The position numbers are program-made. From an uncultured Gemmatimonadales bacterium (lineage in GTDB: Bacteria > Gemmatimonadota > Gemmatimonadetes > Gemmatimonadales > GWC2-71-9), in NCBI GenBank assembly GCA_963795085.1, contig CAWCFX010000001.1, forward strand, positions 224,001 through 288,000: 64,000 bases of DNA, written 5' to 3'. Within the stretch, counting starts at the first letter, position 1, and every line of letters starts with the position of its first letter. Shown here piece by piece: positions 24,001-27,000 of this stretch.

Positions 24001-27000
24001 CTCATCGCGAGGTAAGCCCTGGCGATACCGGCCAACTCACTCTCCGGCGTAGGGCCGGCGTGGAAGGCGGAGAGCCCGATCGCGGCAGCGGCGGCGGCGA
24101 TTGCCCCGATGGCAAACCTGGTTCGCATGGCTGTTCTCACGTAAGGGTTTATCGTCTGCCCGCCGCTTCAGTCTTTCAGCAGGTATTTGAACTCCCACGC
24201 ACACCCTTCCTCCCGAAGCAGCCGCGCCGAACACTCCACCCGGAGCGTGGCGCCGCCGGGAACCGTGAAGCTGCCGCGATGGGTGCCCTGGAAGGGGATC
24301 TTCACGTCCTGGCCGTTCACCACCCCTCCCTGGCCGTCCCGGACCCAGACCCGGGCGCTGTCGGCGCCGAGGGTGTCCCGGCCCATGCAGCTGTTGCGGA
24401 CGCGGACGTGGAGTTCCTTGTCCCGCCTGGTGTGGTTGGCGTACACGTCCTCGGTACGGCCGCACTGGGTCACGTCCCCCTCAGTCACCAGGGCGGAGGC
24501 TCCCTCAGCGCCCGTCCCGGCTTCCGGCCGGTCGTCATCCTCCTGGCAGGCGGCGAGGAGGAGCAGGAGAAGGAGCGCGGGGCGGCAGGACAGAAGGCGG
24601 AACATGGGACCATTATGCACGGGAGGCCGGGCGGGCGCCAGTTTGCCGAATCGAAGAGGCGCATCGCGCCGACTTACTACTCGCTCTCCTTTTCCATCCA
24701 CGGCCTTGGCGATAGAATGGCCGAGGGCAGGCTTCAGCCTGTCCATGACGCCAGGGCCGGATTCAGCCTGGTCGAAATCCTGGCGTCCTCGCCGTCATTG
24801 CGATGCTGGCCAGCGGCGTGACGCCGATGGTGTTTCGCAAGCTGGGCAATGCACAGGTGCGTCACGCGGGACCTGTTCGCACTCACCTGCCTCGGCTGTC
24901 CAATACCATGGCCAGTTTCCGGCACAGAAACCCGCTTCTCTGTCCTCTCCAGCGGACACCGGCACCCGACCTTCGGCATCCTCCACTGACCCCACGCACC
25001 CCGGATCCCCCGGTTCCGCGTCACTCCCCGAACACTTCAGCTTCGGACCTGATCACCCCGACGCGGACCCTGACCACCACTCGTCCGGGTACTTCCCGGG
25101 ACCGGTCCGCCACTTACCACTGCTTCGGCGAGTACCTACCCGCGTGGGGCGGCCGCTGTTCAACGTCGGTCCAGTACTTACCGAGGCTGGTCGGGCACTT
25201 TCCTGCGCTGGTCAGAGGCTGCTCAAGGCAGGTCCAGTACTCTCCCCCGTCCACCCAGCACTTCACCTTCTCCGGCAACTACTTACCCCGGCTCGGCGAG
25301 TACTTGCCGCCCGCCGTCCGGCACCTGGGCGGGGCTCGTGCGGCTCTTACCAGGCGCTCGTCCGGCTCCTGGCAGGCGCACGTCCGGCTCTTGCCAGGCC
25401 TCGTCGGTCGCTGCCCCCGGTCGCGCCAGGGCCGTGGCCGCACCGGCCGGCACTGACCAGCGTCGGGCAACCACGAACCACCTCTCGTCATCCACCTCAC
25501 TTCGTTGGTACAGCTCTGGTCTTCGCTCGTCCCGGACTTGTCCACGTCCCGCAGGGGCTCGATGAGCACGCGGAAACGCTGGCATGCCGTCTGCCCACTG
25601 TCCCCTCCGACCGCAGCGTCGTCGAGCGTGCGCGGACACTGCGGTCCTTCGCTGCACGTACATGCGGGACCCGGGCGCGGCTCGACCCCCCGCGGTCTCA
25701 ACAAGGCAGTTGATTGGAGGTGGTATGAACACCGCGACGCGGGTGACGCTGGCGATGGCCATGCGGGTGCGCGAGCTGCTGGTCGCCAACCCGTTCGGCT
25801 ACCCGGCGGGCGACGACGTCATCGCCCGGCTGGTCATCAAGGTAGGGAGAGCGGAGGCGCTGCTCACGCAGCAGGAATCCGGCATGCAGGCCTCGCGCAG
25901 GAGCACGCTGTACCGCCGGGAGTTGCGCCGGGCGATCACGCGGGTCACGCTGAGGCACCTGGTCAGGATCGCCCGGCCGCTGGCACTGACTCATCCCGGC
26001 GTGGCCGGCGGGATCCGGCAGCCGGCGCTCGGCCGGAGCGAGGAGTCTTTCCTGGCCCGGGTCCAGACGATCGTGCAGGACGTCGAGGCCAACCGGGAAC
26101 TGTTCCTCCTGGTCGGGCTGTCGGATGCGGCGCTCGCCGAGCTGAAGCAGCAGCTCGCGAGCTACCGGCAGTCGATGAAGGATGCCTATGGCGGCCGGCG
26201 CGCGCATACCGGCGCCCAGGCCGAGCTGCGGTCGCTCTCCCGGGAGCTGGTGCTGATGGTGCAGCAGCTGGACGGGATCGTGGGCTACCAGTTCCAGGAC
26301 CGGCCCGAACTGCTGGGCGCGTGGAAGAGTGCGCGGAACGTGGCCTGGCCGGTGTCGAAGCCGGCGGTGCCGGAGGCCGGGCTCAAGCTGGAGAAACCGG
26401 CGGCATGAAGGGGGACAACGGAGGCAGGGTGGAATAGGGGGGCAGGCACCGCTGGGGTCCTCCGGGGGAGCCTGACCCCTTCCGTTCCCGCCGTCCCCCG
26501 CTATTCTAGGAAACCTCCTTCCTGGAGTTCTCCGTGTTCCGACCGGCGATCCCCGGCGCCTTCGTGATCGGCGCGCTCACCGCCAGCATCGGCCTCGTTC
26601 ACGCCCAGTCGAGCGCACCCGCGCCACTCCGGGTGCAACGCGCCGAAATCATGGACCGCCGCGGCTTCGAGCGGCCCATGGTGGCCTACACGCTGTTCGT
26701 GCCGGCGGGGTGGCGCGGGGAAGGCGAGATCGAATACGCTCCGCCCGGCGGCTGCGGCCCGGACCAGCGGATCAACTGGCGGGCGTCCGATCCCGCCGGC
26801 GTGGCCGCCATCCAGGTCGTCCCCGAGGAAAAGTGGTCGGCCAGTAATTTTCAGCAGCCGGACAACTGCCTCCACGCCCAGGTGGGCGACACCCGGTCCT
26901 ACCTGCAGTGGTGGGTCCAGCGTAACCGGCCGGGCGCGCGGGTGCTGGACTACCGGCCCCGTCCCGATCTCGCGGAGCCCTTCAAGAAAATCGCCCAGTC

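Follow-up and report, generated by a model that had tools for sequence, protein, structure and literature searches.

A multicopy family of helical-bundle genes with 21-bp upstream arrays, a sigma-54 promoter, and a kissing-loop leader RNA in Gemmatimonadales

The gene for the protein P0002, carried by an uncultured Gemmatimonadales soil bacterium, belongs to a multicopy, non-syntenic family encoding helical-bundle proteins, and the sigma-54 promoter and uncatalogued kissing-loop leader of this family are genuine and conserved, as the preliminary description of this DNA had claimed. The part that travels most widely with the gene is absent from that description, namely a tandem array with a period of 21(-22) bp located upstream. 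Array and gene form an ancient unit to which the promoter and the kissing loop, confined to one taxonomic family, are a lineage-specific addition. The anatomy of this module, the order of its parts, their conservation, and the RNA pairing are established. Together, the phased array, the sigma-54 promoter, the 5'-terminal kissing-loop knot, and a short-lived helical protein would constitute a four-part, tightly throttled expression module.

Promoter and leader RNA of the P0002 locus

Positions count along the window, i.e., the whole stretch of 64,000 nucleotides analysed. About 20 degenerate repeat units, mostly of 21 bp and in a few cases of 22 bp, are arrayed in tandem over positions 25020..25520 (edges approximate, core 25081-25416, no strand assigned), as revealed by autocorrelation at lags of 21, 42, and 63; they include repeat families with spacings of 43, 42, 105, and 108 and of 22 and 22. 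All the following features lie on the plus strand. The -24/-12 promoter, TGGCAT-N7-GC (25580..25594), was recognised by sequence and by conservation across the gene family, and transcription presumably starts at about 25606, given the standard -12 spacing of sigma-54 promoters. Hairpin P1 (25609..25646, pairing 25609-25616 with 25639-25646), identified by sequence and covariation, is found at the 5' extremity of the predicted transcript. Its loop carries the kissing strand GUCGAG (25621..25626), whose partner CUCGAC (25681..25686) stands in the loop of hairpin P3 (25666..25699, pairing 25666-25671 with 25694-25699, plus an inner stem); both strands are backed by family pairing tests and P3 by family covariation. 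A Shine-Dalgarno sequence, GGAGG (25716..25720), precedes the P0002 gene (25725..26408, from the ATG at 25725 to the end of the stop codon), which encodes a 227-aa protein predicted to be all-helical, with a disordered tail ending in KPAA. Past the stop codon, a long GC-rich hairpin without U-tract (26410..26499) is the probable 3' end signal, and the 120 nt following the stop fold with z<-2 against mononucleotide shuffles in 73 of 109 family genes.

The host genome includes five full copies of the gene as well as fragments, and the P0002 locus sits in a 6-kb island that is absent from this site in three of four same-genus genomes. Rereading bore out that three of the five full copies display the strict promoter motif; the fourth has a variant promoter (TGGCCC-N7-GC) with its kissing pair intact, and the fifth has a read-through tail and no promoter motif. 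The gene set comprises 118 full-length genes, 114 of which have the 200 bp of flank used for promoter counts; every sequence analysis excluded loci L083 and L144 of genome G204, although this genome is counted as one positive in the genome tally. The strict form TGGCAY-N7-GC is found in 79/114 genes (77/107 first copies and 2/7 tandem second copies) and a relaxed form in 94/114, against 4 of 539 background ORFs with a Shine-Dalgarno site for the strict motif. Thus, the enrichment reported earlier stands, whereas the presence of the motif upstream of 42 of 42 homologues was not reproduced, the promoter being common but not universal. At the -12 position, G occurs in 94/105 and C in 102/105 aligned sites, GG at -24 being demanded by the search itself. 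The genome encodes rpoN (215 bits), and NtrC-type ORFs were recognised by eye at window positions 18470 and 20975. The sigma-54 motif is missing from sister-family genes and from Bacteroidota homologues.

A recognisable promoter precedes 100 leaders, of which 88 are long. A hexamer starting 23-28 nt past the -12 GC has a perfect 6-bp Watson-Crick partner downstream in 70 of these 88, whereas 200 dinucleotide shuffles gave 8.0 +/- 2.7 and a maximum of 17. The pairing, initially described for 21 chosen leaders, extends to most subtypes. Its compensatory changes were confirmed on a clade-defined alignment built from sequence alone, which covers 26 of the 27 leaders belonging to a single clade of a quick protein tree (one had no flank): the kissing helix is paired in 95.5% of cases, with double changes at 6/6 pairs. 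On the same 26 leaders, the whole structure again surpassed all slid controls and 500/500 shuffles, which ignore relatedness. P1 is paired at 83.9% with double changes at 3/6 pairs and forms in both folds of the P0002 copy; P3 is paired at 79.5% with double changes at 6/6 outer pairs and is absent from pseudoknot-free folds of that copy. P1 begins 12-16 nt past the -12 GC in 52/69 leaders, and in leaders devoid of P1 the kissing strand itself begins at 11-14 nt (7/12 short leaders), which places the structure at the predicted 5' end.

An Rfam search over the leader gave no match at E<=10, in agreement with the earlier search. A model of the leader yields three significant matches in the host genome, all of them at family genes, and 13 in 121 genomes, of which 11 are at family start codons and two (E about 0.005) are without array or family gene nearby. 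Three further ideas on the leader were rejected: a 5' anti-Shine-Dalgarno helix, as the pyrimidine run mostly precedes the predicted start; base pairing between the kissing strand and the GUCGU that precedes the ATG, for which no co-variation was seen by eye; and an HDV-like ribozyme fold, as the bases between the strands are too few. This well-supported, uncatalogued RNA motif has a 5' end predictable from its promoter, so that it can be probed in vitro at once.

The upstream array and the encoded protein

Of 99 first copies, 91 have an array upstream, as do 13/13 sister-family genes, compared with 2/101 downstream regions, 6/300 random genome windows, and 0/7 tandem second copies; among Bacteroidota homologues, it is found upstream in 18/23 and downstream in 2/23. 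Within the host taxonomic family, a median of 202 bp separates its end from the start codon, and about 70 bp separate it from the -24 box. As the promoter stands between array and gene, the array is outside the mRNA. At some Bacteroidota loci, the gap between array and start codon is only 20-60 nt, so that the array may be transcribed there. The arrays are most likely non-coding, and no 3-nt periodicity was detected in 26 of them. They are C-rich on the gene strand in 51/65 cases, and about seven 21/22-bp arrays of the host genome are orphans without adjoining family gene.

Array units are locus-specific. Indeed, paralogues of one genome (33 pairs, 25-35% identity) share units at the shuffled level, 0.283 vs 0.286, which argues against one sequence-specific host reader. 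Proteins more than 60% identical (20 pairs) share more, 0.494 vs 0.300, but descent alone predicts this equally. In a coarse test on 55 arrays, no protein segment predicted how similar the units are any better than overall identity does (best r 0.045, null 95% 0.09). Consistent dyads were looked for and rejected, only 8/65 and 0/14 arrays being significant at p<0.05, and so was a 10-11-bp sub-period, none being found. The presence of attC sites was also rejected, the GCCTAAC seen having no matching far end by eye.

As stated previously, P0002 has no Pfam or NCBIfam match, and a new prediction of its structure is again all-helical (pLDDT 88.1, earlier 87.5), with a short-long-short-long helix layout. 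The family is large, although its size is now given by 4710 clusters at E<=0.001 with its own profile instead of the former figure of 3783 at 50% identity. The gene occurs in 53 of 125 genomes of the host taxonomic family. Its reported absence from 44 genomes outside that family proved too narrow, as a wider profile is positive in 6/69 genomes of the sister family and 12/201 genomes of the Bacteroidota phylum. Two Planctomycetota loci were not confirmed as members. Of 151 genomes of that phylum, two gave weak matches, one of which is a chemoreceptor by eye. Given the full-length Bacteroidota homologues (hhalign P=98.9%, profile A4 vs the Bacteroidota set) and a link to the NCBIfam PQLLE family, of which P0002 is a remote relative, the protein is not the isolated orphan first proposed.

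Family proteins are basic, their median pI being 9.6 against 6.9 for the genome, and residues 1-20 and 60-80 form basic patches. They are apparently stand-alone and cytoplasmic, a hydrophobic stretch above 1.6 being found in 3/118 and a membrane segment being absent in 115/118. C-terminal AA is present in 73/111 genes and 105/148 database representatives vs 49/2131 (2.3%) in the background. This end resembles a ClpXP degradation tag, as judged from its sequence: the Ala-Ala is free and follows an unstructured tail as in ssrA-like degrons, the host tmRNA tag also ends in AA, and clpX is present in the genome. Structure comparison revealed no known DNA-binding fold, Foldseek gave no match at E<=0.001 against the PDB and viral models, and searching PDB sequences with the profile of the Bacteroidota homologues yielded no useful match. 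No relatives were found in viral contigs or in phage or plasmid records, PHROGs gave single weak matches only, and no partition ATPase or Rep neighbour recurs among 205 flanking ORFs (flanks of about 0.6-3 kb).

A feedback module and its alternatives

The reading tentatively favoured here is a feedback module: the protein, short-lived, would read the phased array of its own gene, and an RNA knot would shield the 5' end of its mRNA. The array would act as DNA, with sites spaced by two helical turns lined up along the same face of the duplex, immediately ahead of the promoter. Its reader would most likely be the product of the adjacent gene, an elongated helical bundle that may assemble along the array and feed back on its own promoter, with each paralogue matched to its own array sequence. 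The knot would tie up the first nucleotides of the mRNA and work by its shape, as a 5'-end protection or a protein-recognised handle, and not as a metabolite switch. As no RNase J was found above cut-off, such protection would have to counter other 5'-dependent decay. The Ala-Ala tail would direct the protein to ClpXP, leading to action in short pulses. If each paralogue reads its own array, this would be a new way of recognising DNA and would supply orthogonal parts.

Possible too, if doubtful, is that a host factor sensing spacing and blind to sequence, either a nucleoid protein or an enhancer-binding activator acting with DNA looping, reads the array, the helical protein acting downstream as an effector without contact to DNA, such as an oligomerising sensor or scaffold. 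Sigma-54 enhancers are usually located upstream, in the region where the array ends here, and an array retaining its period while its sequence turns over suits such a factor. The Bacteroidota homologues, most of which retain the array, are acidic (pI<7) in 18/24; some of them carry C-terminal extensions, with CarboxypepD_reg domains at the C terminus of two. The predicted fold also overlays full-length on the sensor bundles of McpS and TorS, with weak Pfam HBM (PF16591) matches in 9/32 members (best E 0.0003). However, this reading leaves unexplained why one protein family retains the array across phyla with different promoter types.

A selfish addiction-type module, in which the array RNA or the knotted leader would check a harmful or growth-slowing protein as in type III toxin-antitoxin systems, is unlikely. 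A repeat array ahead of one gene, its strand bias, tight control with a degradation-like tag, and the patchy multicopy spread, with fragments, orphan arrays, and an island missing from most same-genus genomes, would all agree with it. Nevertheless, array units are degenerate and not near-identical co-transcribed repeats, and the promoter lies between array and gene with no terminator there. No endoribonuclease toxin fold is among the matches listed in the structure searches for this all-helix model, and PADLOC gives only three single weak matches among 36 members. Moreover, the toxin is the stable partner of known pairs, whereas this protein bears a degron-like tail.

It is quite improbable that the leader forms the functional centre of the locus, either as a riboswitch that senses a ligand or as a ribozyme that cleaves itself. 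A tertiary kissing contact conserved across the gene family and alternative folds would fit, as the same helix appears in nested form in 16/66 minimum-energy folds and the 5' strand of the P0002 copy can alternatively pair beside the Shine-Dalgarno site. Yet the kiss hardly affects how accessible the Shine-Dalgarno site is (0.41 with it vs 0.36 without it, 66 leaders), and neither a terminator nor a Shine-Dalgarno sequestration was found as an expression platform. By eye, no conserved unpaired core was seen in the leader alignment or flanking bases; nearly all the near-invariant positions take part in pairs, and the kissing strands are flanked by variable bases. At least 17 different kissing hexamers are in use, P1 is dispensable in one subtype, and the motif is missing from homologues outside the host taxonomic family.

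It is very unlikely that the array has no role in control and is only a satellite forming beside these genes, either neutral or a by-product of mutation. Fast sequence turnover, orphan copies, and the commonness of 20-21-nt tandem repeats in bacteria (PMC8161180) speak for it; the one-sided position, the period fixed over two phyla, the absence from tandem second copies, and the rarity in random windows speak against it. Finally, an array encoding a heptad-repeat peptide (7 residues) that pairs with the helical protein is extremely improbable: 21 nt make 7 codons, coiled-coil-like sequences appear in some antisense frames, and open frames are in excess in the GC-rich arrays of Gemmatimonadota (of 55, 42 vs 33.5 sense and 33 vs 23.9 antisense in column-permuted controls), but stops occur in all six frames of 11/15 Bacteroidota arrays, 22/43-bp periods exist, strand and frame are inconsistent, and codon-phase bias reaches p<0.05 in 1/66 arrays, coding controls likewise not being significant.

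Relation to known families and systems

Guanidine-II, cobalamin, and lysine riboswitches use loop-loop contacts. The leader resembles them as a 5' leader with a covariation-backed loop-loop pair, but it has no Rfam match and no ligand pocket seen to be conserved, and its position is tied to the transcription start and not to the ribosome site as in kissing-loop cis-regulatory RNAs.

The best structural match of the protein is the chemoreceptor sensor bundle McpS 2yfa (Z 10.6, a value usual for helical bundles; 181/189 residues, rmsd 4.0 A). Unlike the HBM sensor domain, which is periplasmic and inserted between receptor membrane helices, nearly all members lack a membrane segment. The PQLLE family (NF052641) is similar in length and helical. 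Its model has only four matches in 121 genomes of the phylum, all in the P0002 gene family. The gene L351, retrieved with profile A4 and carrying a 21-bp array, is a PQLLE member with 86 bits (cut-off 80), whereas P0002 paralogues remain at 20.5-25.1 bits and P0002 itself has no match. Judged by sequence, the P0002 family is thus outside the PQLLE family proper by score, and inside a PQLLE-related superfamily by full-length homology. Papers matching the PQLLE string are unrelated by title and abstract, and the PQLLE family is encountered as a name only.

DUF6261 (PF19775) of Bacteroidota, for which hagB is a putative lead, is also multicopy, with about 245 aa and a similar predicted helix layout, and the models of both families overlay full-length on McpS 2yfa. 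Its genes display an upstream 41-42-bp array in 15/17 cases and a downstream one in 0/17. It differs by this doubled period and by its mostly acidic proteins; hhalign gives P=0.3% directly and P=11.9% (E=0.0025) via the Bacteroidota homologues, and PF19775 (cut-off 27 bits) matches no family gene of the host genome. Neither the leader nor a gene-array pair, for P0002 or DUF6261, was found described in the literature covered, which includes few subscription papers and no supplements; PMC4596501 and PMC3162934 contributed nothing further.

In the parC-ParR, sopC-SopB, and iteron-Rep systems, operator or centromere arrays are bound by the product of the adjacent gene. By analogy, the helically phased repeats here stand upstream of their presumed reader gene, but the protein has no ribbon-helix-helix, ParB, or Rep fold, and the loci are chromosomal and multicopy with degenerate units.

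A broader version of the feedback module, rather doubtful, would make array and gene a nucleoprotein system that recognises itself and spans phyla. Within a large helical superfamily (the P0002 family, PQLLE, possibly DUF6261), each paralogue would assemble on its own fast-rewritten 21-bp or 42-bp array by an undescribed DNA-binding mode, one Gemmatimonadales lineage having added sigma-54 control, the kissing-loop 5' knot, and a degron for pulses. If true, constant-size, variable-sequence tandem repeats reported without partner would have a named reader, and orthogonal protein-array pairs, already diversified by nature, would be available. The gene-array pair also links the unexplained 20-21-nt constant-size repeats (PMC8161180) with a single protein superfamily of thousands of clusters, and the repeat puzzle becomes a simple binding experiment. 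Subirana and Messeguer note that these repeats amount to two turns of DNA and suggest a protein polymerising along them (PMC8161180). The arrays share with them the period, the lack of a common sequence, and the non-coding nature. Whereas no partner gene is named in the passages of PMC8161180 covered, whose main text contains neither 'upstream' nor 'intergenic', the array described here is linked to one gene family and to one side of it only.

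Locus, copies and distribution

The locus is composed, in order, of a 21-bp repeat array, a sigma-54 promoter, a kissing-loop leader, a gene for a helical protein and a 3' hairpin. The finding is real and larger than first described, the array being the part missing from the preliminary description. On the plus strand of the window, the promoter TGGCAT-N7-GC (25580-25594) is followed by a 130-nt spacer, with a Shine-Dalgarno GGAGG at 25716, and by an ORF of 227 aa (ATG at 25725, stop ending at 26408). The module belongs to a block of about 6 kb (22240-28500) inserted in a type IV pilus region, together with two uncharacterised genes before it and an uncharacterised 363-aa gene and a rhodanese after it. 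This block is missing at the same site in three of four same-genus genomes (G002, G003 and G004), which carry 0.4-1 kb there. Five full gene copies plus fragments are found in the source genome.

Recurrence in the set of 205 flanking ORFs is limited to a tandem paralogue, seen at 7 loci, and to a few genes seen at 3-5 loci each, which by eye encode an endonuclease-like protein, a kinase and an integrase. In the tandem pairs (L043, L044, L046, L049, L052, L056 and L097), a diverged second paralogue lacking its own array or kissing leader follows the first, most often with a sigma-54-like box upstream and, by eye, an IHF-like site.

A profile search matches 4710 clusters at E<=0.001, and the named relatives are Gemmatimonadota, for most Gemmatimonadales. 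With a wider profile, the gene is present in 53/125 genomes of the source's own taxonomic family, in 6/69 of a sister family and in 0/106 of the other families sampled (the unpublished G204 counting as one positive), as well as in 12/201 of the Bacteroidota phylum. The restriction to the own family (0/44 others) is too narrow, given the sister family and Bacteroidota. Nor is the protein a pure orphan: the Bacteroidota homologues align with an hhalign P of 98.9% and one is a member of PQLLE (NF052641). Across 121 genomes of the own phylum, the PQLLE model hits no more than four genes, all of the helical family and all below cut-off; membership in PQLLE or DUF6261 (PF19775) was rejected by cut-off. 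DUF6261 genes carry 41-42-bp arrays in 15/17 cases, and homology to the helical family is a hint. CRISPR-like repeats with a period of 65-66 lie after the DUF6261 gene of L295, downstream of 2061.

The protein is all-helical, as previously stated: the AlphaFold2 model (pLDDT 88.1) has helices at 3-21, 27-89, 106-122, 124-129, 134-189 and 194-204, then a disordered tail. The best structural overlay, the sensor bundle of the chemoreceptor McpS (Z 10.6), is not decisive. The tail ends in AA in 73/111 genes and 105/148 representatives, versus 49/2131 genome ORFs; in the source genome, the tmRNA tag also ends in AA and clpX is present. Several Bacteroidota homologues bear C-terminal extensions, two being CarboxypepD_reg and others FN3-like by eye.

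The 21-bp array

At the window locus, the 500 bp ahead of the promoter show periodicity at lags of 21, 42 and 63 nt. By a fixed test (z>3), an array lies upstream of 91/99 first copies, 13/13 sister-family genes and 0/7 tandem second copies; controls gave 2/101 downstream regions and 6/300 random windows. All five full copies of the source genome have an array, and 18/23 Bacteroidota homologues have a 21-bp array upstream. Arrays have a median length of about 325 bp and end at a median of 202 bp ahead of the start codon; periods of 22 and 43 also occur, and neither a 3-nt nor a 10-11-nt sub-period is present. In one Bacteroidota homologue (L344), the array lies downstream (of 2190) rather than upstream.

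Units are locus-specific, their similarity falling to chance level below about 45% protein identity, within one genome too. About seven similar arrays of the source genome have no family gene, one of them matching a family array at 67% identity over 640 bp. Such 21/22-bp arrays lie at C1:426828-427748, C1:531341-532315, C1:876445-877185, C1:1345567-1346459, C2:14827-15604, C3:379359-380195 and C3:395867-396436 of G000. One has near-perfect 43-bp units, one adjoins an integrase-like gene (by eye) and the two on C3 are 88% identical. Other intergenic repeats include a dispersed family of 8/9/17-nt units, often in inverted blocks (window 19750-20160 and dozens of copies genome-wide, one directly after the paralogue at G000:C1:628063), and another such family, of 7-nt tandem repeats, which differs from the 21-bp arrays and occurs at window 44940-45570 and in at least 12 further places.

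Promoter and kissing-loop leader

From all fetched loci, 118 full-length genes were kept and 29 partial ORFs dropped, 114 genes having 200 bp of flank. The sigma-54 motif said to precede nearly every copy is indeed enriched (strict in 79/114, relaxed in 94/114, versus 4/539 background ORFs) but not universal; most genes missing it show variants by eye. It is absent at the family position from 13/13 sister-family genes and, in strict form, from all 24 Bacteroidota genes. The source genome has rpoN. In one clade (L015, L018, L022, L023, L025, L026, L027, L030, L032, L039 and L063), a TTATGCAT motif, often doubled about 21 bp apart, stands 30-75 bp ahead of the -24 box and is a candidate for either an activator site or the terminal unit of the array. 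G(T/C)(T/C)GT abuts the start codon on its 5' side in 29/117 family genes versus 8/539 background ORFs.

An alignment-free test of the kissing pair took in every leader whose promoter could be recognised (100 leaders), so as to avoid the earlier choice of one subtype. Among the long leaders, 70/88 contain, 24-66 nt further downstream, a perfect partner for a hexamer that begins 23-28 nt past the -12 GC, against 8.0 +/- 2.7 after shuffling; the pairing extends beyond the 21 leaders originally chosen. Other hexamer offsets gave 9-14 leaders, except for the position of the 5' hairpin P1 (29). In short leaders, which lack P1, the kissing strand starts at offset 11-14 in 7/12. A sequence-only alignment of 26 leaders from one clade has 95.5% pairing in the kissing helix, where 6/6 pairs show double changes, 83.9% in P1 and 79.5% in the outer part of the downstream hairpin P3; 0/500 shuffles, which ignore relatedness, reach the structure scores, and slid controls drop to 31-45%. 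Although these shuffles are kinship-blind, numerous distinct hexamer pairs are spread over the tree. Constrained folds enclose both strands in 43/66 cases, the partner usually lying in a second hairpin loop, which makes this a true loop-loop contact. P3 of the window copy is absent from pseudoknot-free minimum-energy folds and thus rests on family covariation.

P1 starts 12-16 nt after GC in 52/69 leaders. As sigma-54 transcription is expected to start at offset 11, this is 1-5 nt past the expected start; promoter and RNA thereby support each other, and the knot appears anchored to the 5' end rather than to the ribosome site, from which its distance varies (7-45 nt). As an RNA motif, the leader is new. 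Its covariance model matches almost exclusively at family start codons and Rfam again gave no match. Five sister-family paralogues of G416 (L164, L167, L169, L170 and L171) have a different leader: the 90 nt that precede the start codon contain a hairpin of 9 bp, and 7 bp can form between its loop and a stretch immediately 5' of the Shine-Dalgarno site; it is 97.5% paired with an invariant knot, hence weak covariation (21/500 shuffles).

Possible mechanism and known systems

Array and gene keep together in two phyla, and promoter, knot and AA tail are restricted to narrower lineages. The array may serve as a landing strip on the DNA, its sites lying along one face of the helix, and would be read by the protein that the gene itself encodes, which in this way would feed back on its promoter; the knot would guard the mRNA start and ClpXP would clear the protein. 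The own product is the simplest reader because units differ between paralogues in one genome. Against this mechanism count the acidic nature of most Bacteroidota homologues, a negative coarse co-variation test of protein versus array and some excess of open frames in GC-rich arrays, and the mechanism as a whole is proposed tentatively, at less than even odds; the anatomy itself is highly likely to be correct. Reading of the array by a host factor, with the helical protein as effector, is nearly as likely as the proposed mechanism. An addiction module is improbable, and a type III toxin-antitoxin locus was rejected. That the leader is a riboswitch or ribozyme is very unlikely: a catalogued riboswitch was rejected, Shine-Dalgarno accessibility is almost the same with and without the kiss, and a shape-based role is inferred. 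A neutral satellite is highly improbable. An array encoding a heptad peptide is scarcely credible, 11/15 Bacteroidota arrays having stops in all six frames.

The layout resembles the parC-ParR or iteron-Rep operator arrays but differs from them in that no partition ATPase or Rep gene recurs among the flanking ORFs. Constant-size, variable-sequence repeats of 20-21 nt, which the arrays match, were described by Subirana and Messeguer (PMC8161180), and the available part of the article names no partner gene for them. In a literature search of incomplete coverage, neither the leader nor the pairing of gene and array turned up. The whole locus is an undescribed form of array-plus-adjacent-protein module, with a putative function.
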